From NCBI GenBank assembly GCA_963743305.1, contig CAVUPH010000024.1:1-64000 (forward strand): a stretch of 64,000 nucleotides of DNA. Direction: 5' to 3'. This document shows positions 2,728 to 54,902 of the stretch, piece after piece (the stretch's first letter is position 1; each line of letters starts with the position of its first letter). The DNA is from an uncultured delta proteobacterium. GTDB lineage: Bacteria > Desulfobacterota > RBG-13-43-22. A model generated the notes under the pieces. The model made no database searches. It was not told the origin of the DNA and saw nothing but the letters and a program-made list of their open reading frames with translations. Made by a program: the position numbers and the translations under genes.

Positions 2728-2766
2728 ACTGGATATCTTCGATGCTTTCTAAAAATTGAAAAACCC

Positions 2767-9137: not shown

Positions 9138-9161
9138 AAGAGGGAGGGCTTTATCTTCATC

Positions 9162-10161: not shown

Positions 10162-10219
10162 TTCGGCTCTTCAAAAGAATATGTGGGCGTTGAATCGGGG
10201 CAACGTACTATTCACCGAT

Positions 10220-11618: not shown

Positions 11619-11653
11619 TGGGCGCCCTTTCCTTGATTCGGTCTGGGACCGGG

Positions 11654-14932: not shown

Positions 14933-15083
14933 GGCCGATTCCTTACCCCAGGAATGGATTCAGGGTGGGGCAGGCCGGAGGGCCTGCCCCGCGAGAAAAG
15001 AGGAACGGTTGACGGACTCCCGACAAGTCCCTCAACAGCCCTCGCAAAAAGTCGATTTTGGGCTTTTTGCGAGGCGAGCACGA

Positions 15084-16289
15084 TTAACGGCCTTTCCAGG
15101 GTTTGTGGGGGTAAACATAAGTGGTGGTGGCCACCGATTTCGGCCAGACGCACTCAAGTTTCCCCTTGATCCACTGGACCAGGTAGGTGGGCACTTTGCT
15201 CTGGTTGGTCATTTTGCCGTAGGAAGTGAATTTTATTTTGCCGAACACCGTCATCAGGTCCGTGGCGGCCAGGGCTTGGCGGATGTCTTCCGGTGAAAAC
15301 GTCTTGGCCCTTTTCAACACGTCGGCGATGACCTGCATGGCGGCATAGGCTTCGGCGCCGTGATATTCCGTGTCCTTCCCATACGTCTTTTTATAATTTT
15401 TAAAATAGTCCATGGCCCCGGGATAGGGGAGCGAAGGCACCCAGAGGTCGGCCGAAAAGACCCCTTCCGCGGCCTTACCGGCATTCTGATAAAATTCGGG
15501 CAGCGTGAATCCGGCCCCGCCGCCGACGAACAATTTCGGGTTGATATCCAGCTCCATGGATTGGCGCATGATCAACGAAGCGTCCATGACGTAAGAGATC
15601 ATGTAGACCAAATCGGGGTTGCCGTTCTTGACCTTGATCAGGAGCGGCTTGAAATCGACTGCTCCGTGCTCGTACCCTTCTTTCAGGAGCACCTGGATCC
15701 CCAAATTTTTCAGGGATTTTTCGACTTCTTTGGAGCCGCTGGTTCCAAAAAGAGTGTTTTCAAATAAAATAGCCGCCGTTTTGGGCTTAGCAATATCTTT
15801 AAAAAAGCTTTCGGCGGCCTCGGCATATTCGCTAACCGGCGGGTTCAGGCGATAAACAAAATTCCAACCCTGTTCGGTAATTTTATCCGCTGATCCGGTG
15901 TTAATTAAAAAGGGAACTTTCTTCTGCTGGGCTACCCCGGAAATGGCAAAGGTCTCCGAACTGCCGTAGCCTCCGCCCAGCATGACCACGTTATCTTTGG
16001 ACAGCAATTTCTCGGCCGCCGACCGGGCGACGTCCGGTTTTCCGGTATCATCTTCAAAGAGGAGCTCAATTTTCTTACCCTTCACCCCTCCCGCCTTGTT
16101 GATATCATTCAGGGCCATGACAAAGGAATTTTTTTCAATTTCTCCGAACTTGGCCTTTTCCCCGGTCATGGGCAGAATGATGCCCACTTTGATAACGTTT
16201 TGGGCGGCCACCGGCCCCGCCCCAGCGATCAAAGTGATAGAAAACGCCACCACTAACGACACCGCCCACCATAGCTTCCATTTGCTCAT
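15084..16289 (-). CDS. Branched-chain ABC substrate-binding protein
   Basis: Signal peptide, KVGIILPMTG and INKAGGVKGKKIEL. Confidence 0.9.
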   Translation of the reverse strand: MSKWKLWWAVSLVVAFSITLIAGAGPVAAQNVIKVGIILPMTGEKAKFGEIEKNSFVMALNDINKAGGVKGKKIELLFEDDTGKPDVARSAAEKLLSKDNVVMLGGGYGSSETFAISGVAQQKKVPFLINTGSADKITEQGWNFVYRLNPPVSEYAEAAESFFKDIAKPKTAAILFENTLFGTSGSKEVEKSLKNLGIQVLLKEGYEHGAVDFKPLLIKVKNGNPDLVYMISYVMDASLIMRQSMELDINPKLFVGGGAGFTLPEFYQNAGKAAEGVFSADLWVPSLPYPGAMDYFKNYKKTYGKDTEYHGAEAYAAMQVIADVLKRAKTFSPEDIRQALAATDLMTVFGKIKFTSYGKMTNQSKVPTYLVQWIKGKLECVWPKSVATTTYVYPHKPWKGR

Positions 16290-39159: not shown

Positions 39160-40113
39160 ATGCCCCCCCTCGAGTTTCCTAATGTTCTGATCGGTCACGC
39201 TTCCTATCCGGACGGACCTACCGGTTGCACCGTGATCCTTTGCCCGGAAGGGGCGGTGGCCGGGATGGATGTCCGCGGTTCCGCCTCCGGCACCCGTCAG
39301 ACCGACTCCCTCTCCGCCCTCCACCGGGTACCCCACATTCATGGGATCTTATTGGCCGGGGGAAGTTCTTTCGGGCTGGATGCTACCGGCGGAGTGCTGC
39401 AATACCTGGAAGAAAAAGGGATCGGCTTTGATGTGACCGTTACCCGGGTACCCATCGTGCCTTCGGCTATCCTTTTTGACCTGGCCTTCGGCAATCCGGC
39501 CGTGCGGCCGGACAAGTCCCTGGGGTATCAGGCCTGTATGAACGCCTCGGCCGGCACGGTGGAGGAAGGGAGTGTCGGGGCCGGGATCGGAGCCACGATC
39601 GGGAAACTGTTCAGCGTCCTCCAGGCCACCAAGGGCGGCCTGGGCTATGCCTCCACCACCTTGGAAAATGGATTGACGGTCGCCGCCCTGGTGGTGGTCA
39701 ACGCCTTCGGCGATGTGCGGGATCTCGAGGGAAACATCCTGGCCGGGGCTCGCACCGGCCCCCGGGACACCACCTGGGCCAACACCTGGGCCTGCATGAA
39801 GCAGGGAATCCAGCCCAAACAATTCGTGGTCCAGAACACCACCCTGGGCGTGATCCTAACCAACGCCCGACTGGACAAGGCCGATGCCCGCAAACTGGCC
39901 CAGTTGGGCCAGAACGCCCTGGCCCGGGTGATCGCCCCGGTACATACCCTCTACGACGGGGACATCGTCTTCGCCCTGTCCGTGGGGACGGTCGAGGCCG
40001 GTCTGATGCAGGTGGGAATAGTGGCCCAGGAGATGCTCCAGGAAGCCATTCTCCGGGCGGTCAAAGCCGCCGACGGCCTGGGCCGCCTCCCGGCCTGGCG
40101 GGATTTTCACTAG
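39160..40113 (+). CDS. P1/S58 (DmpA-like) peptidase
   Basis: GCTVIL, DVRGSASGTRQ, GGSSFGL, QNTTLG and HTLYDGD. Confidence 0.88.
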   Translation: MPPLEFPNVLIGHASYPDGPTGCTVILCPEGAVAGMDVRGSASGTRQTDSLSALHRVPHIHGILLAGGSSFGLDATGGVLQYLEEKGIGFDVTVTRVPIVPSAILFDLAFGNPAVRPDKSLGYQACMNASAGTVEEGSVGAGIGATIGKLFSVLQATKGGLGYASTTLENGLTVAALVVVNAFGDVRDLEGNILAGARTGPRDTTWANTWACMKQGIQPKQFVVQNTTLGVILTNARLDKADARKLAQLGQNALARVIAPVHTLYDGDIVFALSVGTVEAGLMQVGIVAQEMLQEAILRAVKAADGLGRLPAWRDFH

Positions 40114-40157
40114 TTCCACCGTTGGAAGTCATCCGTCAACCCATCGTTAAGCGCTAT

Positions 40158-41617
40158 TCACCTGTTTTCTTCCGCCAAAAGGGCCTCTGCGGCAAAAATG
40201 CCGGACATGGCTGCCGGGGCTACGCCGAACCCCGGGTAGGTAGTCTGGCCGGCCTGATATAAACCGGAGATTTGAGAAGCGTGTGGAAACTGTGCTTTGA
40301 GAGCCGCCGCCGGGGATAGGCCATAGACGGCCCCTTTGTAAAGATGCAGACGACCCTGAAAATCCTTGGGGCTGCGGACCCTTTTTACGGCAATGTCGAT
40401 AGTATTTTGGCGGGTCAGCGCCTGGAGAGTCGATTCGACCACCTCCCCGGTTTTCCGCTCATTCCAATCGTCAGCCGGTAAATCCTGATTTATAGCCGGA
40501 AATATCTCGACGATGCTTCCGCCCTTTGGGGATAGCTCGGGCATCGTCACAGTGGGTACGAAGGTAATAAACCATTTCCCTTCATCCTTTCCTGGAGAGA
40601 AAAATTTGAAATGCTCCTTCATCATCGGAAAAATGATATGGGTATGGCTGCGGAGGCCGATCACGTTCTTTAACCCAAGTTGGATTGAAAACGCCTTGGG
40701 GGACAAGGGCGCCTTACGTATCTTCAGGCTCATTCCACTCGGCAATTCCTCGGGATCCAGGAGTGAACGGAAAGTAGCCATTCCATTAACGGTTGATATG
40801 ACGGCGTCCACCTCGATCGGACCGAATCCTTCAATTTTCAATCCAGAAACCCGTCCATTCTTCAGGAGTATTTTCTGGATCTTCGCGTTTAGAAATATTT
40901 CGCCACCATTATTTCTCAAAGCCCGACCCAGAGCTTCCGATATTTTTCCCATGCCTCCTTCAGGCAGATAATATCCCTTACTCAGGAGGGCAATGAGCCC
41001 TAATATTAATAGAATCGGTGTCTTCTGCGGCGGCGTGCCCGTATACCAGAGAGCGCCGGCCATGGCGGAGCGTACGGCCTGATCGCTGAAAAGGTCATTT
41101 ATTTCTGAGGCCACTGTCCCGTGGAATTTGTGAAGATGCGGCCACACTTTTGGAATCAGCCGTGAAAGTGAAAAGGGGTTGGTCAATAGGTCATTTTCAT
41201 AGAGCCGGAGCACGGGATCCCATTTCTTTCGCAGGTTATCAAGTTCTCTTTGCAGTCGGCCCGCATTACCCTTGGCCATCCCCCGGTTCACCCTTACCTG
41301 GTACTTATCACCGATAGACACAACCGTTCCGTCAGGCAATGTTGTCCGGTGAGAGGCCACTTTCCTTAATGGCAGGATTGAACGGCGTTCAAGGCCCAAC
41401 TTCGCTCAAAAACTCGATCGAGGATCCCGGGAAAACTTAAGTAAACAGCCCCATCGTTAAATGTATAATCCCCTATAGTTGTGTTTGCACAACAGCCGCC
41501 CAGCTTATCATTGGCTTCAAAAAGTTTCACTCTCAGGCCCCGTCGAGAGAGCAGGCCACCTGCGGAGAGCCCCGACACTCCACCCCCGATAATCCCTATG
41601 GTCCGAATTTTACTCAT
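40158..41617 (-). CDS. Phytoene desaturase (CrtI)-family FAD oxidoreductase, frameshift near 41400
   Basis: IIGGGVSGLSAG..LFEANDKLGG..YTFNDG; PEGGMGKI; C-terminal GLYQAGQTTYPGFGV...SG. Confidence 0.82.
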
Positions 41618-41666
41618 AGCGCCTTTTCCTGAACGGTCGAGAAGGGAGGGAATTGTGACCTCCTTT

Positions 41667-43202
41667 CTAATAACAGACGGTTGCCGGATCGGGCATCCCC
41701 CATCCCTCAAATTTTGAACCGAATCCTCTTTTCAGACAACTGCTCTTCAGCAAATTCTCGATAGCCAGTGACCGATTACGGTCCCGAGGCATTTCATAGA
41801 TGTTCTTGTTGCCGGAAAGCAGACAGGCAGCAGCGCCTGAGACAACCGGGGCCGCCATCGATGTTCCACTGCATGATCCGAAGCCGTTCCCTGGCAATGT
41901 GGATAACACCCCTACCCCTAAACCCGTTAATGATATCTGTTTACCGACGTTTGAAAATCCGGCAAGGAACTCATCCGGGTCAGTGGTACCCTTCGGCGGT
42001 CGGTCGACGAAGGCCTCGTCAATCACGCCGGGAGGAAAGGTCCCTTCCCTTCCCATGGCCGAAACGGCTGTTGCGCCGGGAAAAGCGGCCGGGTAATTGA
42101 CTGCCCCACGGAAATCGTTGCCCGCGGCCACTACGACGAGCACCCCATTATCCCGTGCATCCGTAATCGCCATCTTTAGGGCCTGATCGTTTGGGTCCCC
42201 GTTCTCGATGCTCAGATTAATGATATCGCACTTTTCAATTTGCGCTAGGCCTATGGCATTCAACAGATCTGCGCTATTGGCATTACCTCCCCCGAAAATC
42301 CGGTAAGATCGAATCCCGACCCCGGGTGCGAGCCCGCACAAAGTACCTTGAGCGCCGATAAGTCCCGCGACAAAGGTGCCGTGTCCTACCGAATCGTAAT
42401 AATTTCCAGAGGATTGTCCTAGAACCACATTTCGCCCCCCAATAAGATGCAGATCAAGGTGAGGTCCGACACCGGTGTCGATGACACCCACCGTGACACC
42501 GATCGAGGGATCAAACCGGGACTGGCGATAGTATTGACGCACGCCATCCCTGAAGTACAAATTCAGTGGTTCCAGGTCGAGATCGATAGACGGACTTATG
42601 GGAATATTTCGGCGAAAAGCACCCCACCGCCACAATTGTTCGCAGTAGAGCTGTTCAATGGATTGTCCTGAGAGTCGCATCATTACCTCTCCAGAAGCAT
42701 CGGTCACTTTTTCATCCCCTTCGTTACTTTTATAATTCGAGATGGCGGTCACCAATAGGCCGCTGCCTATTGGAACTCTTTTCCCATTTTCCTTTCCCCA
42801 AACCTTTATCGTAACGTCTGAACACTTCCCCTTCGGTCGCTTTGGTCTCATGACTCCAGCCATAGGTGCGGAAGCCTTCGCAAGGCCACCCGAAACTCCC
42901 GATGGCCTTCTAGGCGTGAGGGGCATGTTTAGCGGCCGGTCATACTTGAAGATAGGCCATCTGAGAACCGCTCGGTTTTGATCCACCGCACGAGCGGCCT
43001 CGTCGTCCAACTCCACCACCTTTGGACCTTGAGGCAGGATGGAATGAATGACCCGGATTTCCTTTCCCCCTGCAAGATTGGTTTTTTTTACCATAAAGGG
43101 CCTGGGGGGTCCTATAGATTCCTCCAGCGGATGCAGCTCCTTTAGCGCTTCACTAAGAAATCCTTTACGGGGTGTCAATAGGTACTGCTTGGTTTCGGCC
43201 AT
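41667..43202 (-). CDS. S8 subtilisin-family serine protease without signal peptide
   Basis: Triad VIDTG / HGTFVAG / GTSMA and oxyanion AAGND. ATG 43202 follows AAGGAGG. Confidence 0.9.
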   Translation of the reverse strand: MAETKQYLLTPRKGFLSEALKELHPLEESIGPPRPFMVKKTNLAGGKEIRVIHSILPQGPKVVELDDEAARAVDQNRAVLRWPIFKYDRPLNMPLTPRRPSGVSGGLAKASAPMAGVMRPKRPKGKCSDVTIKVWGKENGKRVPIGSGLLVTAISNYKSNEGDEKVTDASGEVMMRLSGQSIEQLYCEQLWRWGAFRRNIPISPSIDLDLEPLNLYFRDGVRQYYRQSRFDPSIGVTVGVIDTGVGPHLDLHLIGGRNVVLGQSSGNYYDSVGHGTFVAGLIGAQGTLCGLAPGVGIRSYRIFGGGNANSADLLNAIGLAQIEKCDIINLSIENGDPNDQALKMAITDARDNGVLVVVAAGNDFRGAVNYPAAFPGATAVSAMGREGTFPPGVIDEAFVDRPPKGTTDPDEFLAGFSNVGKQISLTGLGVGVLSTLPGNGFGSCSGTSMAAPVVSGAAACLLSGNKNIYEMPRDRNRSLAIENLLKSSCLKRGFGSKFEGWGMPDPATVCY

Positions 43203-44523
43203 GATTTCCTCCTTTCGCTCCCACAGTGAAGGGGAGATGGCTCCTTCCTCCAGACACTGCCGGGCGGTCTGTATAGACCCGATGGAACAGAAAATATTCA
43301 ATGCACTGCTCCCCGACACAAACCTTCATCCCCAGATCTTCACACCATTGCACCAATTGAACCAGTTTCAAAAGCGCATTGTTGGCCGGCTGCTTTTTTT
43401 GAGAACTGAACTCGGAGGCCGGTGTGGCCCTGAAAGGGTAGACATTTACAACCTCCAGGTACCTCCGGTGGTCCGCCAGAAATTGAATCGTTTTCTCAAA
43501 ATCGAGGCTGCTCTCCCCCGGGCAACCAATTACCAGAGAAGGGGCGGGCAATATTCCGCAGGAATCCAGCCCTTTTATGAAATCCGACATCTGCTTGGTG
43601 GTGATCCCTTTATTCATGGTCCGCAGAGTGCGGTCACTTCCAGACTCCAACCCAAAAAAGATCACTCGACAGCCTGCCCTCCCAAGGGCCTCCATCTTTT
43701 CTCCAGACAGGTCCGCCCTGGAGGCCCCACACCACGGTTTATTAAATCGCTCGAGGTAGCCGCAGAACTCATTCAAATTATGGCCATTGAGTGAATGATC
43801 CCTGCAGACCAGTACCGCCGGGTCATAGCGATCAATCAGCACCTCCAATTCCCTGAAAGCGGTCTTGGCCGACCGTTCAAGATATCCTGAATTCCCACCT
43901 TTAGAAAGGGAACAGAACCCGCATTTCCCCCAGGAGCATCCATGTTTCAATATGAAAGGAAGAAGGTCAAACAGGTATTTTCCCCGATGCGCATACCTGG
44001 GACTGGGCAGCAGGTCGTAATGGATCGGTTTTGCCGCCTCGCCCCTCGTAAAAAGATCATTCAAATGCACCGTTTGTACCCCGTTTTTCTTCAACGCTTC
44101 TTCGTTGGTCCATGAACCCAGCGAGTTGCCGAAGAAAAATACCCTGGTGTCGCCGGATACCTGCCTGATGGTGTGAGAGAGTCTCAAAACCGCTTCCGCG
44201 GGGACCGTAGGAAACCAGGAAGGAGTGGTAATATAAACCCGGGGATATTTCTCCCAAGAGATGGCGGCATACGCTCTTTCGATCTGGGTCTCAAGTTCAT
44301 CGTAAAAGGGATAAAGAAAATAGGCATCCGAGACTTTCGGGGCCTGGTCCATGACGTGCAATATTCGCTTGAGTTTTCTTCGGTTTCTGAAATAGAGTTC
44401 AGCATTTAGATCGATCACTTCCAGATCATATCGGCCTCCCAAGATCGCGGCGCCGTAACCCAGTAATAAATTGGGATGAAAGGGTAGATGAGGAAGCCAT
44501 GGGGTTACCAGAGCGGCCTTCAT
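43165..44523 (-). CDS. Radical SAM protein of the B12-binding/class-B-like group
   Basis: GCSWGKCGFC cluster motif, AGCRVIFFGLESGS..LRTMNKG and IGCPGES; N-terminal Rossmann-like region. GGAGG RBS before 44523. Confidence 0.85.
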   Translation of the reverse strand: MKAALVTPWLPHLPFHPNLLLGYGAAILGGRYDLEVIDLNAELYFRNRRKLKRILHVMDQAPKVSDAYFLYPFYDELETQIERAYAAISWEKYPRVYITTPSWFPTVPAEAVLRLSHTIRQVSGDTRVFFFGNSLGSWTNEEALKKNGVQTVHLNDLFTRGEAAKPIHYDLLPSPRYAHRGKYLFDLLPFILKHGCSWGKCGFCSLSKGGNSGYLERSAKTAFRELEVLIDRYDPAVLVCRDHSLNGHNLNEFCGYLERFNKPWCGASRADLSGEKMEALGRAGCRVIFFGLESGSDRTLRTMNKGITTKQMSDFIKGLDSCGILPAPSLVIGCPGESSLDFEKTIQFLADHRRYLEVVNVYPFRATPASEFSSQKKQPANNALLKLVQLVQWCEDLGMKVCVGEQCIEYFLFHRVYTDRPAVSGGRSHLPFTVGAKGGNHGRNQAVPIDTP

Positions 44524-44684
44524 TTTGTCCTCCAAGCAAGGGGACTTTCCACCCCAGCGCTAAAGATCCCTGAACTCCAGCAACACCCGTCCTTCCCGCT
44601 CGTCTGCGCTGAAACGCCAGGTCGAAGTTAAAAGACGAGACGATAACCTCATCTCATGATGCCGAAAATTTACGTCACTCAAAA

Positions 44685-44954
44685 CTAGTACCCCGTTTCC
44701 AAGAGAGCCTTCTTCGCCCGGCCCGTGGTCTTGAAAATTTCTAACAGCCGGGATACCTCTTCGGTGGTTACCCCTTCGTACCCCCAATCGACCAAGAGCT
44801 GGCGGAGTGCTTTTGCGTTTGCGCCTTCCTTGTTCAGCTCGCCTAGGAAATGCATCCCGACAGTTGAATCATCACGGCACGCGTCCGCAATCAAATCCAT
44901 CATATCCCTCTTAGGCTTTTGCTTCTTCGTCGGTACCTTTTTTGGCGTGGTCAT
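44685..44954 (-). CDS. 89-aa putative RiPP precursor (Nif11-like leader), C-terminus KKALLETGY
   Basis: Strong RBS AAGGAGGAGG; located between two radical SAM genes. LLVDWGYEGVTTEEV resembles the Nif11 A.E.G(Y/F).FT.EEL pattern. Confidence 0.6.
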   Translation of the reverse strand: MTTPKKVPTKKQKPKRDMMDLIADACRDDSTVGMHFLGELNKEGANAKALRQLLVDWGYEGVTTEEVSRLLEIFKTTGRAKKALLETGY

Positions 44955-45037
44955 ATTCCCTCCTCCTTTTTTTATCCGCACATGAGCCGTTCTGATCGAA
45001 CCTTTTATCCTCTGCGCAAGAAGGCGATGATTAGGGG

Positions 45038-46072
45038 TTACCCATAGGATGAGGCCCTGGACAGTACTCTCTGACAATAGGGGACCTGCGGGAACATGTC
45101 CCGGTACCATTCCGAAGGTCTCATCATCCCCTCCTGGCTGCAAAGGCAAACGTATTCGCAATTTCGACAAATCCTTTGATCCTTCGACACCGGCCGGCCA
45201 TACTCATTCGAGTTGATGAGGGTCGAGAGAATACCCGGAACATAGGAGCCGAAATGCTCTGTAGTTGAATGAGCCGGGGTGATGCGCCCTTCCGCGGTGA
45301 TCATCACGCTCCCCGGCCGGTATAAAGGAGGAGACCGGGTTATCCAGGGTAACTTGAGGATACCTGAGGCCACCGCCGCCAGGGGATTGTTCAATAAGTC
45401 CACTTTCAAACCGAAAAGATTCAGAAGGGAAATCATCCGGACCAGCCGGAGAAAGTCACCGGGACGCAGTACCTCCTTTGACAGATCAAATACATCCTCC
45501 GGCACGCGAATGAGCTGTATGAAAGACAACTGCTTGATGCCGGGGAACTCTATAAAAAGCTTTTCTGCAAAACGAGGCATTTCTGAAATGAGGCTTCTAC
45601 CGACGGGGCTAAAGACGTGCACGGGAAGACCAGCATCCAGGGCTTGGCGGATACCCCCTAGAGCCCGGTCGTATGACCCTTTCCCGCGTAGGCGGTCATG
45701 ATTTCGTCTCGGCCCCTGAAGGCTTATGGAAATAGATAACCCTTCATAGTTGGCAAGTTTACGGCTGACTTTACCGGTCAGCAAGGTCCCGTTGGTATTC
45801 AAAAAGGCCGTTTGGTATCCCAGGCCAAAGGCCTGATCGAGAATTTCCAGCAAACCTTCCCACAGGAGTGGCTCCCCCCCGGTCAGGTGCAGGTGCCTAA
45901 ATCCGGCTTCATATCCCTCCTGGACCATATTCTGAGCCAGAGCGGGGACAAGACCTGACCTCTGCGGACCGCGGGCGCGGACAAAGCAATGCGAGCAGGA
46001 ACTATTGCAGCGGGTCGTTACCTCAAGCCCGAGGCATTCGCCGTGAAACCGGAGAATAGCCAATTCGTTCAT
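45038..46072 (-). CDS. Radical SAM protein with C-terminal SPASM-like Cys cluster
   Basis: CNSSCSHC, TGGEPLL, TNGTLL, HDRLRGKGSY; C-terminal CRNCEYVCLC...YC. Confidence 0.88.
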   Translation of the reverse strand: MNELAILRFHGECLGLEVTTRCNSSCSHCFVRARGPQRSGLVPALAQNMVQEGYEAGFRHLHLTGGEPLLWEGLLEILDQAFGLGYQTAFLNTNGTLLTGKVSRKLANYEGLSISISLQGPRRNHDRLRGKGSYDRALGGIRQALDAGLPVHVFSPVGRSLISEMPRFAEKLFIEFPGIKQLSFIQLIRVPEDVFDLSKEVLRPGDFLRLVRMISLLNLFGLKVDLLNNPLAAVASGILKLPWITRSPPLYRPGSVMITAEGRITPAHSTTEHFGSYVPGILSTLINSNEYGRPVSKDQRICRNCEYVCLCSQEGMMRPSEWYRDMFPQVPYCQRVLSRASSYG

Positions 46073-47097
46073 TGTATCCTTCCTGATGGTTCGCTTTCTT
46101 TTTTTGACGCTTCGCCTTTTGGGGTAAGATTATTGAGGTCTCGAAATTCCTTGGCCAACCCTATCATCCGGTGAGCTTCGACCCTAGATGCCGCTGTCTC
46201 TAATTCCGTGCCTATCTTTTCTTTGATTTTGTCAATAAGGTTGTTTTCCAAAATATGTTTGAGAATAGCCTTCAAGGAATCTTTGGCCCTAGCCCGGCCC
46301 CTGCTCCTATAATGATTCCAGTGAGTCCTCATTTTATCAGGAAGGCCAATATATATTGCCGAGTGTTTCCCCTTTTCGAGATCACGCTTTATATCCCGAA
46401 TATCATCGAGAAGCCGCCAAGCAATCCCGAAGGAACCATAGGCCCTCTCAACATCCCTGGTAAGATCCGAGAATCCGGTCATCTTCAGGGAGAGGAGAAT
46501 GGGAGCCACCATGCCGATGGCCATCTGTTTTCTAAAACGATGACCATAGCCAACAAGAGATATTTGCCCTTTTGAATCTCGGGTGCTCTCATAATAATCA
46601 TCAATAAAGCCTCGGACGGTTTTCATTCCTTCGGGAAGGCCTTCCGCCAGATTGCGGAAGGCCCGGTTCATGAGCGTCCAGGCCTGGCTTCTCAGGAGTA
46701 ATGTCAGAGGGGAAACGGAAAGCTGTTTATCGGTGAGATGATCGTCGAGAGAGTGAAGAAACATCGCCAGGGATTGGGCGGTTACTGCATGGGCAACATC
46801 CTTTTTTTCCAAACGCTTGGTAGGGAGAGCCCGATCGCGGCTGAGCCAGTAAATAATGGACCAGGCAGGAGGATAATAATGAGCAAAAAAATCCAACTTG
46901 TTGCCTGGAATTATCCCCGCATACTGCAGGAGGAAAAGGATCGAATCGGTCTGAGTGGACTTAGGAAGGGATCGGCAAAAGAAAAGGATTTCTTTGCTGA
47001 ACCGCCGATAAAAGGCGGTTTCTCTTTTCGAAAGTACACCCTTACCGAAATCTACGGTTTCGCAGTGAAGCAGGAAATCCCTGATAGTACCTTTCAT
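46069..47097 (-). CDS. Class I isoprenoid-synthase-fold protein (candidate prenyltransferase)
   Basis: Two Asp-rich motifs, HSLDDHLTD and FGIAWRLLDDIRD, in an all-helical protein. Its stop overlaps the next ATG (ATGA). Confidence 0.78.
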   Translation of the reverse strand: MKGTIRDFLLHCETVDFGKGVLSKRETAFYRRFSKEILFFCRSLPKSTQTDSILFLLQYAGIIPGNKLDFFAHYYPPAWSIIYWLSRDRALPTKRLEKKDVAHAVTAQSLAMFLHSLDDHLTDKQLSVSPLTLLLRSQAWTLMNRAFRNLAEGLPEGMKTVRGFIDDYYESTRDSKGQISLVGYGHRFRKQMAIGMVAPILLSLKMTGFSDLTRDVERAYGSFGIAWRLLDDIRDIKRDLEKGKHSAIYIGLPDKMRTHWNHYRSRGRARAKDSLKAILKHILENNLIDKIKEKIGTELETAASRVEAHRMIGLAKEFRDLNNLTPKGEASKKESEPSGRIQ

Positions 47098-47138
47098 TCG
47101 AAAACGCTCGATTTCCCTGGTCCTTCCGTCGAAGGTCT

Positions 47139-50100
47139 TTAGATCTCAGTAGGTTCAAGACCTGCCCGGTTAATCACCGAAGTCAGATCCTCCAGTTCAT
47201 GGTGCAGGCCCATTTCACGGAACATCGTTTTCGCCCTCAACAAAGGCTCCTTGGCTCTCAGCGCTTCGGGACGCGAGCCTTCGCGAATGCCCTCACAAAG
47301 GCAGGTGCCCATTTCAGCGCAGGTCCTTGAGAGCTGAGGACGGGCACCCAGACTTTCCCCTTCATGAATGGCCTTACTCCACCACGTATAAGCGCTTTTC
47401 TGATCGCGGATCAACCAGTGGTAGAGACCCATTAATCTATAGGATTCCGTCCGGTATTGCGCCGCTTTCCGACAAGTCTTGATCGCCATTTTTCCTGAAT
47501 TGAAAGCCTTTCTGCGATTTTCAGAAGCTCCCTCTCTTTGGCCGGCCCGAAGAGATTCTTCCAGACGACATAGGTAGTATTCGAACTGACTCCGATAAAA
47601 GACGGATAACTGCGTGGGAACGGCCTGCACTTCAGATTTGATCCGCTGGGCGTGATCAAGTGACTTTCCCGCCGCCTCCGTTTCTTTCACCAACAGGTGT
47701 ATCAAAGCCTTTAGGCAATGCATATTCATTAAAGGTAAGGTGAAGCCCCATCTCTGGAAAAGGTCGATTCCTCGAGTCACTTCGGCAGTGGCTTCCTGGA
47801 TCAGGCGGCATTCAATGAGCAGACTAATATTCAAGCAGATAGTGCAAACAACGAGAGATGTCGTTTTCATAGACTTCGGCGATATCGCGCAGCTTGGTCA
47901 CCGTCAGTCTGGCCGCCTCAAATTGCCCCTGGTAAACTTGGGCGAGTCCGTGCCAGTAATAATGCTGGGAGGCGTAATACATTTCCCCAAGTCTCAGATT
48001 TCTGGTCACCAAATCTTCGTTGCAATCGAAAATATCCTTCCACTGTCCTTTGAGAAAAAGGTGAATCGTATCCACGAGATCATAGACTATTTTTTGCTTG
48101 GCATCATCCGGAGCCAGTCTCGGCTTGGCGTAATCCATGATTCGTCTGCTAATACTCAGGGAAAGACCGGTGAAGGAGAACAGGGCACTGGCACCAGCAA
48201 AAATGCCTATACCCAACTTGAACTGTGCCAGATCGAAATGGACGATGGTGTCATAGAAGAAAAAGGATTCGATAAAAAAACGCTTGGGGTTGATAACCAC
48301 CAGGGCCTCACCCTTTTTATAGAAAAGCTCTACCGCTTCGGTATCCTGCCAAGTGGGTAGTCTCTTGAACCAGAAGGAAGGAAAGTACAGGGCCAGGATG
48401 AAGGTCGTGAAACTGGACAGGAATTTTAAGGCGGTGGTCAAAGCATTTTGGGGGAATTCGCCCCAATAGTAGTTCAGGGCCTTGTCGAAATGCTCCACCG
48501 CCTCGGCGTAGTGCCCTCGATTAAAAAGAGCTAATCCGATGTTTTTCTCCAGCATGGCCACCTTTTCCGGATCGGCGCTGTGGCCTTGCAGCTTGCGATA
48601 AATGTTAAGCGCCTCCTGGTAATAGGTAAGCGCTTCGTTGGAAGCCGATGATCGCAAAGCCTCTTCTCCGGCGTTGATCAAGTACTCTTCGGCTTTCTCC
48701 AGACTCTCGGCCCTGCTGTAATGATAGGCCAACATCCCGTAGAATTCGTGAAGCCGCTCGTTAAAGACTTTTTCTATAGCCTGGGCCACTCTTTGATGGA
48801 TCTCTTTTCGCTTCCGGATCAGGATGGACTCATAGGCCGCCTCCTGGGTCAAGGCGTGCTTGAAGAGATACTCCACCTCCTCCATCCGTTTTCGTTCCCG
48901 AATGAGCTGAATCTCCTTAAGGTAATCGAGCCTTCTGTCAATCCCCTCGATGGTGCCGGTTACTTCGGTGAGGATCTTATAGAAGAAGTTTCGGCCGATG
49001 ACGGAGGCCACCCGGACCACGTTCCTGGTTTCTTCATCCAGGCGATCGATTCGAGCCATGATGAGGGCATGGATACTCTGGGGAATGACGATGTGTTGGA
49101 TCTTCTCCGTCACCCGGTATTCTCCCTTTTCCGGGACCACGGCACCTTCATGGATCAGGGAGCGGACCACTTCCTCGATGAAAAAGGGGTTCCCTCCTGC
49201 TCTCTGGAGAATCTGCTCCCGAAGTTTATTGGGAAAACTATCGGTCCGGTGGAGATTCGTGAGGAGTTGCTCACTTTCCGATTCTTTCAAGGGGTCTAAT
49301 TCGATCTTGGTCCAGTAGGCCGGATAGTTCTCCTGGATGGAGGCCGTGACTTGTTCTCCCGTGTCGGTATAGCCGGGACGGAAGACTAAAATAAAAAGAA
49401 TCCGGTATTCTTCCACCAGGCGAAAGAGGGCCTTCAAAAGTCCCAGGGAACTCACATCCACCCAATGGAAGTCTTCCATATAAATCACCGTAGGCCGGAT
49501 TGCGGAGCCCTTGATGAGGATCTCCCGCATGCTCTTAAAGATCAGCTTTTCTAAAGCCTCCCCTTCGATGCCCTTAACCCGCTGGGCGTATTTCCCGGTG
49601 AGCTTCATCCCCATGAGGGTGGCAATGAAGGGAAAGATCTCCCCCACCTCCTGGAAATGAATGTCCCGGATGGCCCGCTCCAGTTTCCACTGGGCCTCGG
49701 TATCGGTGTCATCCTCCCTGATTTGGGACCAGTGTTTCAGGGCGTCGATGATAGGATAAAAACTCAGACCTCTTCCCATGGAAAGGGATCGACCTTCGAG
49801 AATGGTGGTCTTTTTAGCGACCTCGGTCAGGCGCAACTCAGCCAGAAGGCGGGACTTCCCGATCCCCGGCTCGCCGCTGACGGTGATAATCCCTCCCCTA
49901 CCATTGATGAGGCGCACGACCTGAAGCGATAAGCGGTCCATTTCCTTATCTCTTCCCACCAAAGGGGAATCGACGCCCACCGATCGTCTTTTTCTCTCTT
50001 TTATCTCTACGACACGGTAAACCCGGACCGGATCGGTTTTGCCTTTGACCCGAACGGGTACGAGCGGTTCAAAATCAAAAAACCAATCAGCCTGACGAAA

Positions 50101-50744
50101 GGTGCCGTCACCCGCTAAAATCTCACCGGGCCTCGCCAGCGTAGACAACCGTGACGCCAGATTAACGGTATCTCCCATAACCCCCAGAATTCCATTTCCC
50201 TTGGTTACTTCACCGGTAACGACCAGTCCTGTATTGATGCCTGTATGCATGGCCAGACGTTTTCCAACTTTAGGCTCAAACTGAGGACTGATCGCCTCGA
50301 TTCGTTCATGGATTTCTCTCGCGGTTCGGATTGCTCGCACTGGATCATCTTCATGAACCTTGGGCACCCCAAAAAACGCCACCACCGCATCCCCGATAAA
50401 TTTCTGAATAGTTCCTTCATATTTGCTCACCGTGGCGGTAATTTCCCCGAAGATCTGATTCATGATTTTCTTGAGCTCTTCGGGATCTAAGCGCTCAGAC
50501 ATGGCCGTATAACCGGAGAGATCGGAGAAAAGAACCGTCACCTGCTTTCGTTCCTCTTCGATGGCTGGTTCTATCTGTCCGGTTCAGCGGATTCATCTAA
50601 TTGCTGCCCGCACCTGCCGCAGAACCGAAATCCATCGGGATTTACGAAATGGCAGCCTGGGCAAATCCCCTCCAATTTGGCACCACATTTTCTACAAAAA
50701 TCCAGGCCATCGGGGTCAGGATATTGACATTGGGGGCATTTCAT
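47139..50744 (-). CDS. Double zinc ribbon-adenylate/guanylate cyclase-AAA(STAND)-TPR protein, frameshifts near 50575 and 47830-47870
   Basis: MKCPQCQ..FCRKCG..CPGC..FCGRCG; VLFSDLSGYT, KFIGDAV, GDTVNLASRL; GEPGIGKS; GNPFFIEE; TPR-like C-terminus. Confidence 0.85.
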
Positions 50745-50807
50745 TCTTGGGCTCTCCTTCGATAGAGATCCCTTAATAAAACTCCGGAAGGTGGCGGTGG
50801 AAATACA

Positions 50808-50843
50808 AAAGCCTCCACAGGGCTTTACCCCTCTGGAGGCTTC
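50808..50843 (-). terminator. Terminator-like hairpin in the leader of the cyclase gene
   Basis: The minus strand reads AAGCCTCCAGAGGGG-TAAA-GCCCTGTGGAGGCTTTT. Confidence 0.45.
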
Positions 50844-50983
50844 GTCTCGGAATTTCTTGAAACTCCCACTTCATATCCCAATCCAAAAGTTTTTTAGAGT
50901 TAGGTTAGGAAGTTCACGATCAAATTTAACTGTAGGATAAAATCTTAACCATATTTTAGAAAAAATGTCAATGGTTTTCTAGG

Positions 50984-51142
50984 TTAACGAAGGGGATGTT
51001 CAAAGGCTGGATGACTGGATGCCGGCCGGATAAGCGGTTGGTGGATCCCTTCTCGGGGCGCGATAAACGAAGGGAATGTTCTAAGGCTGGATGACTGGAT
51101 GGCGGCCGGATAAGCGGTCGGCGGCTCCCTTCTCGGGCTCCC
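50984..51142. repeat. Two tandem ~80 bp direct repeats
   Basis: AACGAAGGG.ATGTTC.AAGGCTGGATGACTGGATG.CGGCCGGATAAGCGGT.GG.GG.TCCCTTCTCGGG occurs twice. Confidence 0.85.
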
Positions 51143-51144
51143 AA

Positions 51145-52503
51145 TCAGAATCCAATTTTGCTGCTGATCGTTACCACCCGTTCCCGAATTTCTTCCCAAT
51201 CCAGGGTCAACAGCCTGCGCTGCCGCATGACCATTTGCCCGGCAATGAAGACGGTGTCCACATCCGCCCCGGAGGCCGCATAGACTAAATGGGAAAAGGG
51301 GTGGTAGAGGGGGGTCAAGTGGGGTTGGTTCAGATTGATCAAAATCAAATCCGCCTGTTTGCCCACTTCCAAAGAACCGATTTCTTTTTCCAGCCCCAGG
51401 ACCTTGGCCGCCTCCAGGGTAGCCATTTCCAGGACCGAATGGGCCCCCAACAGGGTAGGGTCGAGGCGATGGACCTTGTGTAGGCGAGCAGTGGTACCCA
51501 TTTCCCGGAAGAGATCCAGGTCATTATTGCCGGCACAGCCGTCCGTGCCCAACCCCACGACTATTCCCCGCGCCAGCAGTTCCACCACCGGGGTCACTCC
51601 CGCCCCCAGCTTCATATTGCTCTCCGGGCAATGACTGACGCTCACCCCGGCTCGGGCCAGGAGTGCCATTTCCTCCTGATCCGGATAATTCACATGGACC
51701 CCGATAGTGGAATCATCCAGACAACCCAACCTATGCAAATAACGAACCGGGGTCAGACCGGTTTGACTCTGGACCATGGCCACCTCCTCCTTGGTTTCCG
51801 CCAAGTGAATAAATAAAGGAATCGCCTTTTCCAGGGCCAGGGCCCTGGCCTTTTTAAGGGTCTTCGCGGAGCAGGTGTAAGGAGAATGGGGGAACAACCC
51901 CAGTCGGATCCGAGGAGATCGTCCGGACCATTTTTCGATGAAATCCCGGGCCGAGCGGATATTGTCGGCCGGGTCCGGGACCCCCGGGGCTGGAAAATCA
52001 ATCACCCCCGGGGCCAGGACAGCCCGCATGCCGGACTGATAAATCGCTCGGGCAGCGCCATCCAAACAAAAATAGCCGTCGGCCAGGGTGGTGGTCCCGG
52101 ACCGGATCATCTCAGCGCAAGCCAGCAGGCTTCCCCAATAAACCGTCTCCGGATTGATAAACCGCGCCTCCGCGGGAAAGATATGTTTTTCCAGCCAGTC
52201 CTTCAAGGGCAGGTCGTCGGCCAGTCCCCGGAAAAGGGTCATGGCCGAATGGGTGTGGGTATTGATCAGTCCCGGCAGGACCAGAACCCCCCGGCCGTCA
52301 ATCACTTCCCGGGCCGTCCAGCGCTCCGGACAGCGCGCACCGAGATACATTATCCGGCCGTTTTTGATGCCCAGGGCGCCCGCCGGGATCGGCTCCGGAA
52401 AGATGGGGGACATGGTCAGGATCAGCGCGTCCCTGATCAAAAAATCAAAATCTTCCACTATCCGGTTCTCCAGGGGTTGTTTTGATTCTTGATTTTTGGT
52501 CAT
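51145..52503 (-). CDS. MtaD/DadD-like amidohydrolase (MTA/SAH/5'-dAdo deaminase family)
   Basis: NTHTH, IHLAET, HCPESNMKL and GTDG. Confidence 0.88.
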   Translation of the reverse strand: MTKNQESKQPLENRIVEDFDFLIRDALILTMSPIFPEPIPAGALGIKNGRIMYLGARCPERWTAREVIDGRGVLVLPGLINTHTHSAMTLFRGLADDLPLKDWLEKHIFPAEARFINPETVYWGSLLACAEMIRSGTTTLADGYFCLDGAARAIYQSGMRAVLAPGVIDFPAPGVPDPADNIRSARDFIEKWSGRSPRIRLGLFPHSPYTCSAKTLKKARALALEKAIPLFIHLAETKEEVAMVQSQTGLTPVRYLHRLGCLDDSTIGVHVNYPDQEEMALLARAGVSVSHCPESNMKLGAGVTPVVELLARGIVVGLGTDGCAGNNDLDLFREMGTTARLHKVHRLDPTLLGAHSVLEMATLEAAKVLGLEKEIGSLEVGKQADLILINLNQPHLTPLYHPFSHLVYAASGADVDTVFIAGQMVMRQRRLLTLDWEEIRERVVTISSKIGF

Positions 52504-52516
52504 TTATTAATGACGC

Positions 52517-52609
52517 TTCGCCCTTTTGGGTGAGTACCCCCTAGATCTGGTATGGCCTGATTTCAGTCTAATCTACTAGATATTGTGGCCACCCACCCAA
52601 AAGGGCGAA
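52517..52609. repeat. Intergenic inverted repeat
   Basis: TTCGCCCTTTTGGGTG ... CACCCAAAAGGGCGAA. Confidence 0.7.
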
Positions 52610-52617
52610 CAACCTTA

Positions 52618-53961
52618 TTAATTTAGCCGGGCCAGCCGCAAAGACTCAGCGAAACGATTCGCCCGGGATAAAATTTCTTTAAGATCCAAGGTCAACAGCT
52701 CCCGGTTCTTCATCACCGTTCGGCCATTGATGATCACCCGGGTGACATCGGCACCCCGGGCCGCGTAAACTAGATGGGAATAGATGTTATAAAGTGGAGT
52801 CAGGTGCGGTTGATCCAGGTCCAAGAGTATAATATCGGCTTTTTTTTCGGGCTCCAGGGACCCCACCTGGGATTCCAGCCCCAGGACCCGGGCCCCGCCG
52901 CGGGTAGCCATCCGGAACACGGTGCGGGCATCCATGACGGTGGGATCCAGACGATGGACCTTATGCAGTTTGGCCGCCGAGTCCATTTCCTGAAACAAGT
53001 CCAAATTGTTGTTGCTGGCGCAGCCGTCGGTCCCCAGGCCGACGCAGACCCCCCCGCGTAACAGCTCTACCACCGGGGCCACCCCGGAGGCCAGTTTCAT
53101 ATTACTTTCCGGGCAATGGACCACCTTGACCCCCGCGGCCGCCAGGGTTTTCTGGTCGGTCTCCGAGAGTACCACGCAGTGCACGGCGATCAGTTGCTCG
53201 TCGAGCAACCCCAATCGGGCCAGGTGCTGGGTCGGCGAGACCCCGTATTGTTTCAAAATCTGATCGGCTTCGGTTTGAGTTTCCGCCAGATGGATGATCA
53301 GGGGAACCCCGGTTTCAGCGGATAACCTTTTGGCCTGAAGGAGCAGCTCCGGGCCGCAGGTGAACGGGGTGTGGGGTTCAACGGCCACGGAAATCAGGGG
53401 GTCATCCCGGTATTTTCGGATCAGCTCACGGGTATAAGCAAACCCCTTTTCCAGGGGCCCGTAATTGGGGGAGGGAAAATCGTAAAGCACTTCCCCCACC
53501 AATGCCCGCAGGCCGGCTTCCTGGGCGGCCCGAGCCACCTGACCCTCGAAAAGGTACATGTCGCAGAAAGTGGTGGTACCGGACAAGATCATCTCCGCAC
53601 AAGCCAGCAAGGTCCCCCAATAGACCCATTCCCCGGTCAGGCGGCGTTCCGCCGGAAAGATATGGTTTTCCAGCCAATCCATCAGCGGCAGGTCGTCGGC
53701 CAAGCCGCGCAGTAAGGTCATAGCCGCATGGGTATGGCTATTGATCAAACCGGGCAAAACGGCTCCTCCGCGGGCATCAACGACTTCCTTGGCCTTTAAG
53801 GCCAACGGCGCCAGCTCTTCTTCCGCTCCTACGGCCAAGATAGAATCTCCGCTAATCGCCAGGGCCCCGGGATGAAAAATATTCAGCCGGTCATCCATGG
53901 TGACGATCAGGCCGTTTTTTATGAATAGATCAATGGGTTCTTCTGATATCCGATCGCGCAT
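52618..53961 (-). CDS. mtaD: MtaD/DadD-like amidohydrolase, second paralog
   Basis: NSHTHAAM, DMY, IHLAET, HCPESNMKLASG and GTDGCASNN. Confidence 0.88.
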   Translation of the reverse strand: MRDRISEEPIDLFIKNGLIVTMDDRLNIFHPGALAISGDSILAVGAEEELAPLALKAKEVVDARGGAVLPGLINSHTHAAMTLLRGLADDLPLMDWLENHIFPAERRLTGEWVYWGTLLACAEMILSGTTTFCDMYLFEGQVARAAQEAGLRALVGEVLYDFPSPNYGPLEKGFAYTRELIRKYRDDPLISVAVEPHTPFTCGPELLLQAKRLSAETGVPLIIHLAETQTEADQILKQYGVSPTQHLARLGLLDEQLIAVHCVVLSETDQKTLAAAGVKVVHCPESNMKLASGVAPVVELLRGGVCVGLGTDGCASNNNLDLFQEMDSAAKLHKVHRLDPTVMDARTVFRMATRGGARVLGLESQVGSLEPEKKADIILLDLDQPHLTPLYNIYSHLVYAARGADVTRVIINGRTVMKNRELLTLDLKEILSRANRFAESLRLARLN

Positions 53962-54047
53962 ATTCCTCTCTTTCTTGAACAGGTGAGATCCCTAAAAGAC
54001 TTTTTGCCGCGTGGTTTTGTGGCAAGATAGTTTTGATATTCGGTCGG

Positions 54048-54902
54048 TTAACCTGTTATCTTCCTCCCGCTCTTCAACTCCTGCGGGGTCAATTTGGAAA
54101 CCACCCCTTCGACCAGGGCCATCAATCGGGGTTCGGCTTTTCGCGCCGTGGCAATAATGGCCTTCAGCGAAGCGGGCTCCTGGCAGTCCGGTCGGTTGAC
54201 GTTGGAAATGACCGATATTCCCATTACGCGCAGACGGCACTGCACTGCGGTAATGACTTCCAGGACGGTAGACATGCCCACGGCTTGGGCCCCCATCTGT
54301 CTGAGCATTCGCGTTTCCGCCGGCGTCTCCAGGCTGGGTCCCTTGACCGCTACGTAGACCCCCCGGCGAAGAGGGATTTGTTTTTGCAGAGCCACTTTTT
54401 CGGCCAGGTCCGTCAAGCGGCGGTCATAAACGGCGGAGAGGTCGGGAAAACGGTCTCCCCAATACTCCTGGTGGGAACCTACCAGAGGATTCTCTCCGGT
54501 AAGATTGATGTGATCCATGATCAGCATCAGATCCCCGGACTCGAATCCGGGGTCCAGACCCCCGGCGGCATTGGAAACAATCAGGACCTTCACGCCTAAT
54601 CCGGCCAGTACCCGAATAGGGAAACCGATCTCCTGGGGCGCATAGCCTTCGTAGAGATGGAACCGGCCCTGGAGGGCGACTACCGGTTTACCGGCCAGGG
54701 TCCCCCAAACCAACTGGCCCTGATGGGACTCCACGGTGGAATGGGGGAAATAGGGTATTTGCTCATAGGGAATGGACCGGGCCTTTTTGATCCCGCCAGC
54801 CGACTCACCCAGACCGGTGCCCAGGATAAGTCCGATGGGGGCCTCGCCACCCATTTTCTTCTTCAAGTAGGCGACTGTTTTTAGAAATCGTTCTTTGTTC
54901 AT
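54048..54902 (-). CDS. punA: Purine nucleoside phosphorylase (trimeric type)
   Basis: GLILGTGLG, QGRFHLYEG, NAAGG, GPSLETPAE and VGMSTV. Confidence 0.92.
   Translation of the reverse strand: MNKERFLKTVAYLKKKMGGEAPIGLILGTGLGESAGGIKKARSIPYEQIPYFPHSTVESHQGQLVWGTLAGKPVVALQGRFHLYEGYAPQEIGFPIRVLAGLGVKVLIVSNAAGGLDPGFESGDLMLIMDHINLTGENPLVGSHQEYWGDRFPDLSAVYDRRLTDLAEKVALQKQIPLRRGVYVAVKGPSLETPAETRMLRQMGAQAVGMSTVLEVITAVQCRLRVMGISVISNVNRPDCQEPASLKAIIATARKAEPRLMALVEGVVSKLTPQELKSGRKITG

Follow-up and report, generated by a model that had tools for sequence, protein, structure and literature searches.

What would a bacterium make with an isoprenoid-synthase-like enzyme, two radical S-adenosylmethionine (SAM) enzymes and a small peptide encoded side by side? 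The question is raised by positions 40158-50744 of the 64,000-nt stretch of DNA analysed here (the window; contig CAVUPH010000024.1, assembly GCA_963743305.1). An earlier note, made from the sequence, had seen seven co-oriented minus-strand genes and proposed a pathway to a peptide made on the ribosome and modified after translation (RiPP). The seven genes are indeed there, and between 40158 and 50744 the minus strand carries every long open reading frame (ORF) in the ORF listing. We put the probability at about 60% that the window carries a version of a widespread RiPP-type system consisting of a candidate prenyltransferase (PT), a radical SAM enzyme and a Tyr-ended peptide, linked to sensor proteins. 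By sequence comparison, the conserved core is three genes: PT, the first radical SAM enzyme and a peptide of 70-100 aa. These travel together, with PT and the radical SAM enzyme sometimes forming one polypeptide. The product is probably a modified, lipid-tagged peptide signal, whose chemistry we infer.

The three-gene core

Do these genes belong together? Scanning for PT with one genome per species yielded 60 related loci, hosted by Desulfomonilaceae, other Thermodesulfobacteriota metagenome-assembled genomes (MAGs), many Spirochaetota, one Firmicutes MAG and one Planctomycetota MAG. Among the Spirochaetota are the cultured Leptospira perolatii, L. sarikeiensis, L. haakeii and Leptospira sp. 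SA-E8. An ortholog of the first radical SAM gene lies directly downstream of PT, on the same strand, in 49 of the 58 PT copies that could be assessed (those with at least 1200 nt of downstream sequence). In 7 of the 60 loci PT and the radical SAM enzyme are joined in one ORF (669-689 aa), and a large protein database contains 9 fused proteins of this kind (673-690 aa), all with PF04055. Synteny and fusions together refute the idea that the genes are neighbours by chance. The expectation in the earlier note that homologous loci keep these genes and the small ORF together holds for the core and fails for the S8 protease and the CrtI-like oxidoreductase. A homolog of the small ORF is found in most loci, the regulator (a STAND protein) in 20 of the 24 Desulfomonilaceae-type loci, and the second, B12-like radical SAM enzyme in 19 of 61 loci (the 60 plus the window).

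The small ORF encodes the putative precursor. In the three first relatives it follows the radical SAM gene, and all four peptides, the window's included, end in Tyr. With a hidden Markov model (HMM) of the small ORFs, 45 complete precursor homologs were found in the loci. Forty of them end in Y with the radical SAM enzyme present, and no precursor in a radical SAM locus has another last residue. The four with a different ending all come from loci without this enzyme, three from Leptospira (H, H and L) and one a 129-aa read-on form (L047), and one Y-ended precursor (L043) is likewise in a locus without it. Because the three Leptospira loci are close kin, these and L047 represent about two independent events. 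Across the loci, C-terminal Tyr and the radical SAM enzyme co-occur. An alignment of 34 precursors, in a family 70-100 aa long, leaves M1 and the final Y as the only invariant residues. The first ~55 residues form a conserved helical leader patterned as F-x-D-F-I ... L-x-x-W/F-F ... G-Y-x-V-S-x-x-E/D-C-x-K-L. Over the last 15-25 residues the sequence is hypervariable. When 1.84 billion representatives were searched exhaustively with HMMER, 543 matched the precursor at E ≤ 1e-3 (representatives clustered at 50% identity); among the best 150 of the 543, 145 end in Y, two in W, one in F, one in S with Y before it, and one in L.

The window peptide has no Pfam or NCBIfam match at E ≤ 0.01, the reporting limit applied to all window proteins (both databases as of June 2026). 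Its description as Nif11-like did not survive as a family assignment: PF07862 and TIGR03798 do not match it at 0.01, nor, when its own genome is searched, at E ≤ 1. Across the 34 precursors, PF07862 weakly matches four (best E 0.028) and TIGR03798 three (best 0.014). As these models read the sequences, the likeness to Nif11 is one of layout, not membership. Nif11-like leaders carry a double-glycine-type cleavage motif between leader and core, and no conserved column of that type was found in the alignment of 34 precursors.

Is PT a prenyltransferase? It has no Pfam or NCBIfam match at the same limit and, because no curated model matches, its identity rests on fold and comparative evidence. A Foldseek search of PDB with its AlphaFold2 model (predicted local distance difference test, pLDDT, 87.7) places geranylgeranyl, farnesyl and hexaprenyl diphosphate synthases on top, with template-modelling scores of 0.54-0.63, 9-16% identity and a probability of 1.00. 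The predicted all-alpha trans-isoprenyl diphosphate synthase (IPPS) fold is as in ComQ/PalQ-type enzymes. Among 35 sequences that are 42-72% identical to the window copy, the residues H115, D118, D119, H120 and D123 of the first Asp-rich motif are invariant, as are D231, D232, D235 and D239 of the second, which is intact. PF00348 does not match the window PT even at E ≤ 10; it weakly matches 11 of the 35 family members (best E 7.8e-4), SQS_PSY weakly matches seven and Terpene_synth_C five, and all such weak matches fall within isoprenoid-synthase families. There are 677 PT homologs at E ≤ 1e-3. For 120 PT homologs among the matches listed no Pfam domain is on record, and the Atlas neighbours of PT carry the names terpene synthase or class 1 isoprenoid enzyme. 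The label prenyltransferase in the earlier note thus stands for the IPPS fold and the Asp motifs and falls for a curated family match.

The first radical SAM enzyme looks like a peptide maturase in structure. In 24 sequences its CxxxCxxC cysteines (C22, C26 and C29) never vary, nor do four C-terminal ones (C302, C305, C311 and C333), a number that suffices for one auxiliary Fe-S cluster; the Pfam search gave no match to PF13186 (SPASM). The best Foldseek matches of its model (pLDDT 90.3) are anSMEcpe, SuiB, CteB, ChlB and SkfB, mostly peptide-modifying SPASM enzymes. Many SPASM/twitch maturases, though not all, have a leader-binding domain of the RiPP recognition element (RRE) or PqqD-like type. 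No such N-terminal domain was matched in this enzyme, where the Cys motif already begins at residue 22.

How, then, might the leader be recognized? Modelled as a pair, PT and the precursor reach an ipSAE of 0.61 (runs 0.61, 0.61 and 0.68), and the best of three controls reaches 0.00. Of 80 solved complexes 58 attain this ipSAE mark, as do 2 of 110 mismatched pairs; these counts apply only roughly here, because our models were built on our own alignments. The runs share at least 69% of their contacts, with a partner pLDDT of at least 71. In the model the leader sits on the N-terminal helices of PT (PT residues 31-68 against precursor residues 17-28, 37-41 and 66-78), which supports binding. This placement also bears on another reading, quite unlikely in our judgement, in which PT is no transferase at all and serves as a leader-binding scaffold in place of an RRE, so that the product would be modified by the radical SAM enzyme and lack an isoprenyl group. 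The modelled site lies away from the Asp-rich motifs, the radical SAM enzyme has no N-terminal RRE before its motif, the two proteins are fused in some lineages, and no curated prenyltransferase family matches PT, all as such a scaffold would have it. However, nine invariant metal-binding-type residues at 42-72% identity are unexpected in a pure scaffold, enzymes of isoprenoid chains recur beside the core, and in Leptospira PT occurs without the radical SAM enzyme, next to a precursor and a peptidase.

Table 1. Positions of the features of the locus and its right-hand neighbours in the window
Feature	Position	Strand	Basis or description
Right neighbours: two TRZ/ATZ-MtaD-like amidohydrolases and a purine nucleoside phosphorylase	51145-54902	minus	
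Regulator piece 1, double zinc ribbon, 57-aa ORF	50571-50744	minus	PF12773 DZR, E 2.5e-12
Regulator piece 2, cyclase + AAA/STAND + TPR, 905 aa	47824-50541	minus	PF00211, E 3e-19; PF13191, E 1.2e-19; TPR
Regulator piece 3, C-terminal repeat (sensor-like), 243 aa	47139-47870	minus	no Pfam or NCBIfam match
PT, 342 aa, two Asp-rich motifs	46069-47097	minus	fold and comparative evidence
First radical SAM enzyme, SPASM/twitch-like C-terminal domain, 344 aa	45038-46072	minus	PF04055, E 2.6e-21
Putative precursor, 89 aa, ends ...LLETGY	44685-44954	minus	ATG behind AAGGAGGAG
Terminator-like hairpin (weak)	44635-44657	minus	9 pairs, 3 of them G-C; T-rich tail after
Second radical SAM enzyme, class-B (B12)-like, 456 aa	43165-44535	minus	PF04055, E 5.9e-11
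S8 subtilase, 550-aa ORF, probable start 43202	41667-43319	minus	PF00082, E 1.8e-35, 123.1 bits vs gathering score 21.8
CrtI-like N-terminal FAD/NAD Rossmann piece, likely start 41617	41366-41710	minus	PF13450, E 4.7e-13
CrtI-like C-terminal piece, 413-aa ORF	40158-41399	minus	TIGR02734 crtI_fam, positions 100-492

Regulators and accessory genes

The core is linked to signal-transduction genes, in two different ways. In Desulfomonilaceae-type loci the partner is the STAND regulator, which in relatives is one ORF of 1194-1226 aa that runs from the zinc ribbon through cyclase and NTPase to the two repeat parts. Three of the regulator-less loci of this type have less than 250 nt of sequence upstream of PT, and one (L023) lacks it despite 10 kb. 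A hydropathy scan of the regulators gave borderline segments only, and none in the window copy; regulator piece 2 scores 304.6 bits against TIGR03903, under the cut-off of 705.75. Elsewhere in the same genome, outside the window, further cyclase-domain proteins akin to the N-terminal part of the regulator are encoded at G000:C24:87500-87973 and G000:C20:96259-96825, in frames of 681 and 546 aa. In spirochaete-type loci the precursor is on the other strand. There, in 12 of 18 loci, it stands 4-350 nt upstream of, and co-oriented with, a membrane signalling protein that bears a PP2C domain. Eleven of these proteins (~980-1120 aa) combine seven transmembrane helices (7TM), HisKA, HATPase, receiver and PP2C, and one of 601 aa (L058) is 7TM plus PP2C. 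Five further spirochaete-type loci have an ORF of the same sequence-similarity group in that place, two of them cut by contig ends, and in one the precursor is at the contig edge.

The regulator in the window is a mosaic when compared with two relatives, one from a genome of the same genus (G002) and one from another genus (G020). Against the single-ORF regulator of G002, piece 1 is 81% identical to residues 1-53, piece 2 is 71% identical over residues 56-968, and piece 3 aligns, in another frame, to residues 970-1194 at 34%. Taken by segment, identity is 81-86% for residues 1-650, 51% for 651-968 and 34% for 969-1194; PT identity is 44%, and the accessory genes are not the same ones. With G020 the three segments reach 38-52%, 75% and 69%, with the PTs 74%, the precursors 50% and the geranylgeranyl reductases 82% identical. 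Piece 3 is 50-71% identical in loci whose PT is also nearest to the window's. Since the order of identity to G002 and G020 reverses along the regulator, its C-terminal repeat half is, going by these identities, inherited with the biosynthetic module and not with the host genus. Such co-inheritance is expected if the C-terminal half recognizes the product of the module.

Could the regulators merely control production of a toxin? An antimicrobial, bacteriocin-like lipopeptide would suit a cluster that differs between strains, occupies a hypervariable locus as an island, has proteases of its own and encodes a core sequence of high variability. We nevertheless hold it very improbable: a scan of ORFs and Pfam domains finds no immunity or ABC-exporter gene in the window cluster, the spirochaete precursor shares one transcription unit with a 7TM receptor-type kinase/phosphatase, and in its inheritance the sensor half of the regulator follows the biosynthetic genes.

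Around the core, the accessory genes vary from locus to locus. The domain calls of the earlier note hold for the window: an S8 protease, two radical SAM enzymes, a piece of the CrtI family, and a regulator with zinc ribbon, cyclase, AAA and TPR. The best NCBIfam match of the second radical SAM enzyme is TIGR03975, a RiPP C-methyltransferase model (60.3 bits vs a cut-off of 281.85), and its best sub-threshold matches are B12-dependent RiPP or lipid methyltransferases. A B12-binding domain was not matched, PF04055 being its sole Pfam match. Five of the 19 loci with this enzyme are spirochaete loci, and its orthologs follow the precursor in 13 loci (tblastn). The S8 protease has no predicted transmembrane or hydrophobic segment. 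It has no match at E ≤ 1e-10 in 20 genomes of the same family, its best match elsewhere among the 40 related genomes is 37% identical, and 201 pattern matches in metagenome_contigs left none confirmed. The N-terminal piece of the CrtI-like protein matches TIGR02734 over positions 3-65 (39.6 bits), and the C-terminal piece scores 106.2 bits against the cut-off of 238.1 for that model.

Other loci fill similar slots with other genes. Non-orthologous proteases recur (an S8 of 819 aa in L007, an S53-like one in L005 and a C25 after PT in L052), and S26-type membrane peptidases lie directly behind PT in two Leptospira loci without the radical SAM enzyme (L063 and L066). Geranylgeranyl-reductase-family flavoproteins (TIGR02032, cut-off 158.8) cluster in seven loci, of which three were scanned; one scores above the cut-off (L058, 196.4) and two below it (L049, 155.7; L024, 121.3). 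Because such non-orthologous equivalents recur, the protease and flavoprotein slots proposed in the earlier note are plausible. Characterised members of both flavoprotein families act on isoprenoid chains. By analogy, the adjacency of two unrelated flavoprotein families to the core is what chiefly, if indirectly, supports the view that the product bears an isoprenyl group. A further SPASM radical SAM enzyme is present in the G002/G020 version of the cluster, and its best match is a model of Nif11-like peptide maturases.

Flavoproteins and proteases beside a core whose last residue alone is invariant recall mycofactocin, which starts from a C-terminal Tyr on which a SPASM radical SAM enzyme acts. 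Mycofactocin, too, derives from a ribosomal peptide, and the position of the residue hints at chemistry at the carboxyl end. The peptide may then be a scaffold from which only the terminal Tyr, altered by the radical SAM enzyme and prenylated, is excised, to serve not as a peptide signal but as a lipid-soluble cofactor or quinone-like compound in the manner of mycofactocin and pyrroloquinoline quinone (PQQ), and the unconstrained 15-25 residues before the Tyr and the missing exporter would agree with it. We think this unlikely. The radical SAM enzyme scores 56.2 bits against the MftC model TIGR03962, where the cut-off is 265, and the cluster encodes no MftB/PqqD-like chaperone and no MftD, MftE or MftF. 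The leader is also much longer here, and an IPPS-fold enzyme is present. Moreover, the system is strain-variable, its core is tied to sensor proteins and not to redox enzymes, and the inheritance of the sensor half with the biosynthetic genes fits specificity for a variable ligand.

Frame breaks, flanks and distribution

Two genes of the cluster are broken in the window, which the earlier note overlooked along with the invariant C-terminal Tyr of the precursor. The regulator spans three ORFs (Table 1), with breaks near 50577-50595 and 47834-47839 by alignment to the single ORF of its relatives, and the CrtI-like gene spans two, with one break at 41366-41399. None of the three sites is in a homopolymer run, and the frames of the core genes and of the S8 gene are intact. 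The breaks may be real decay or assembly errors. In G002 (L006, G002:C27) frame breaks affect the S58 peptidase (2343-3285), an amidohydrolase (14376-15735) and the radical SAM gene (8445-9429), all three intact in the window; because G002 breaks genes that the window keeps intact, consensus errors in such assemblies are plausible. Contigs from four public runs over the region are short and of low depth and span none of 41366-41399, 47824-47870 and 50541-50595. Five public DNA sequencing runs match 0.05-0.13 of the sampled words of the region, and no RNA run is among those listed.

The genes are tightly packed, as had been reported. The ATGA coupling is a stop/start overlap between PT and the first radical SAM gene at 46072-46069, and the longest ORFs of the B12-like radical SAM and S8 genes overlap; with S8 read from its first ATG, 38 nt of that overlap remain. 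The impression of an AT-rich cluster was borne out once GC content was computed: 51.5% in the cluster against 55.9% and 54.8% in the flanks, the lowest among 107 sliding windows of equal length, itself excepted. A scan of the region for promoters and terminators found no excess over shuffled sequence; terminator-like sites number 12 where 14.1 are expected. The hairpin listed in Table 1 lies 28 nt past the precursor stop. A hairpin just behind a precursor gene is in a position typical of attenuators.

Host genes had been described as converging on the cluster from both sides, which is true of the left only. The S58/P1 peptidase there is on the plus strand, and only this flank is convergent because the MtaD-like amidohydrolase on the right shares the minus strand of the cluster. 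The best sub-threshold matches of the two right-hand amidohydrolases include 5'-deoxyadenosine deaminase and methylthioadenosine/S-adenosylhomocysteine deaminase, and together with the purine nucleoside phosphorylase they resemble a salvage set for adenosine-type by-products. Their membership in the cluster was considered and rejected, because genomes of the same genus without the cluster keep these genes too; the encoded proteins are 82-98% identical in same-genus genomes with and without it.

PT occurs in 4 of 41 related genomes, the window's own counted, and in six loci of metagenome_contigs with scant downstream sequence. In G002 the system is found at the identical chromosomal place, between flanking proteins 82-98% identical to those of the window. 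Within the genus the system is strain-variable, being present in two of four genomes at the same locus. The gap between S58 peptidase and amidohydrolase (40113-51145 in the window) is a hypervariable spot of the genus. Two genomes hold divergent versions of the cluster there, a third (L085, G001:C31) has PD40/NHL beta-propeller proteins, and the fourth (L086, G003:C6) has a ferredoxin/TrmB-like protein and a malic enzyme.

Several loci depart from the layout seen in the window. In cultured Leptospira (L063, L064 and L066, at ~9270-12400) the variant without the radical SAM enzyme has its precursor divergently upstream of PT, a PP2C protein on the other strand, and a ThiC gene further upstream in all three. 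A group of fused PT-radical SAM proteins at 31-32% identity (L053, L054, L056, L057 and L062) comes from MAGs that bear the labels Leptospirales, Firmicutes, Planctomycetota and Spirochaetes; L054 has a HEAT-repeat protein upstream of the fusion and, after it on the opposite strand, a kinase/PP2C protein. Tandem PT duplicates are present in two loci and two precursors in two (L029, 8250-10936; L035, 8025-10924; L044, 14258-15051; L034, 15438-15680 and 17447-17704). Three separate PT loci (L031, L038 and L043), only one of them with the radical SAM gene, come from a single MAG (USMO_maxbin.118). Four consecutive aldehyde dehydrogenase paralogs lie right behind PT and the radical SAM gene in L040 (7185-13492) and L042 (12029-18417), where a precursor was not detected.

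A lipidated peptide signal?

So, what might the system make? In the pathway that we propose, PT would dock the leader with no RRE domain involved, and the radical SAM enzyme would act on the terminal Tyr. The likeliest single reaction for the latter would be an MftC-like oxidative decarboxylation, a tentative assignment to which we give less than an even chance; it draws on the position of the Tyr alone, because the family matches of the enzyme cover its generic core only. We lean, if slightly, towards PT alkylating the peptide from a prenyl diphosphate, probably on the Tyr-derived end. Locus-specific accessory enzymes would then tailor and release the product. In the window, the B12-like radical SAM enzyme would do the tailoring, the S8 protease would remove the leader and the CrtI-like flavoprotein would act on the isoprenyl chain. 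The odds seem to us about even that the linked regulator senses this small, lipidated product in the way known from ComQ/ComX/ComP. Doubtful as a whole is the fullest version of this picture, a ComQXP-like signalling of anaerobic Desulfomonilaceae and Spirochaetota by a Tyr rebuilt by the radical SAM enzyme and isoprenylated, with strain-specific 'pherotypes' set by the variable tail and the sensor half.

A number of observations weigh against a lipidated RiPP signal, some of them against the enzyme assignments. Neither Pfam nor NCBIfam has a curated prenyltransferase model that matches PT, and a PT profile against PDB sequences reaches a best E of 0.25, which is not significant. The NCBIfam matches of the first radical SAM enzyme are confined to its generic core (residues 8-170) and far under every cut-off. 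The complex model is confident for the leader and leaves the terminal Tyr unplaced relative to the active site. Three Leptospira loci have PT without the radical SAM enzyme and peptides that end in H or L; because they do, Tyr need not be the acceptor of PT. The loci with the five fused forms in the 31-32% group yielded no precursor homolog, nor did L038, L040-L042 or L045. In the all-against-all clustering of 910 ORFs from the 61 loci, the S8 protease and the CrtI-like gene are singletons, and the best match of the latter in 40 related genomes is at most 31% identical. The regulator (two breaks) and the CrtI-like gene (one break) are interrupted, unlike rpoB and rpoC of the same genome, which are intact. 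The scan of ORFs and Pfam domains also found no exporter gene in the window cluster, and an autoregulated antimicrobial peptide would be consistent with the linkage to regulators as well.

Which known systems come closest? PalQ/PalX of Paenibacillus alvei pairs an isoprenoid-synthase-fold enzyme with a precursor that has a conserved leader and a C-terminal Trp, which is prenylated; the enzyme-precursor complex was predicted by a structure model and later confirmed (PMC10853753). The likeness is an isoprenoid-synthase-superfamily enzyme beside a precursor with conserved leader and C-terminal aromatic residue. The difference is that PalX is an NHLP-type peptide ending in Trp, whereas the peptides here end in Tyr and have no NHLP or Nif11 match. 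The radical SAM enzyme that is obligate here and sometimes fused, the other phyla and the sensor link also differ, and the two systems are set apart by description and not by the sequence of PalQ.

The ComQ/ComX/ComP/ComA quorum-sensing system of Bacillus shares with the present one an IPPS-fold enzyme, a small precursor with a signal at its C-terminus and a receptor gene in the locus. In Bacillus ComQXP, biosynthetic genes and the sensor part of the receptor diverge together between close strains, and they diverge together here too. The receptors differ, those here being either a cyclase-STAND-TPR protein or a 7TM kinase/PP2C protein. ComQ-family enzymes prenylate Trp, whereas here the terminal residue is Tyr and the core includes a radical SAM enzyme. 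The preprint on StheQ/StheX describes the ComQ family as having one Mg site at the first motif and a mere pseudo-second motif (bioRxiv 10.64898/2026.08.29.745113); here both motifs are intact.

Prenylated Tyr in a RiPP would not be new in kind. The cyanobactin Tyr O-prenyltransferases of the PagF/LynF type have the ABBA barrel fold. If Tyr is prenylated here, the product feature would be of the same kind, and the enzyme would differ in its predicted all-helical IPPS fold. We found no description of this combination of genes in the literature, in a search that mostly left subscription journals outside and excluded supplements, and a query for RiPP, radical SAM, prenyltransferase and Leptospira returned no match. 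We consider the system best filed beside the ComQ/PalQ lipidated RiPPs and not as a member of those families.

If the reading as a widespread, sensor-linked RiPP-type system is true, the system would be a new RiPP class of at least several hundred diverse members, going by the 543 precursor representatives and 677 PT homologs. To our knowledge, almost no peptide natural products or peptide signals are known from the host lineages. An isoprenoid-synthase-fold enzyme would be paired, and at times fused, with a radical SAM enzyme, leader recognition would proceed without an RRE, and C-terminal peptide lipidation would extend from Trp, as in PalQ, to Tyr. The mosaic regulator offers a case, open to direct testing, in which a signal and its sensor domain would be inherited together, and the cultured Leptospira isolates that carry relatives would be a culturable source of the natural product.

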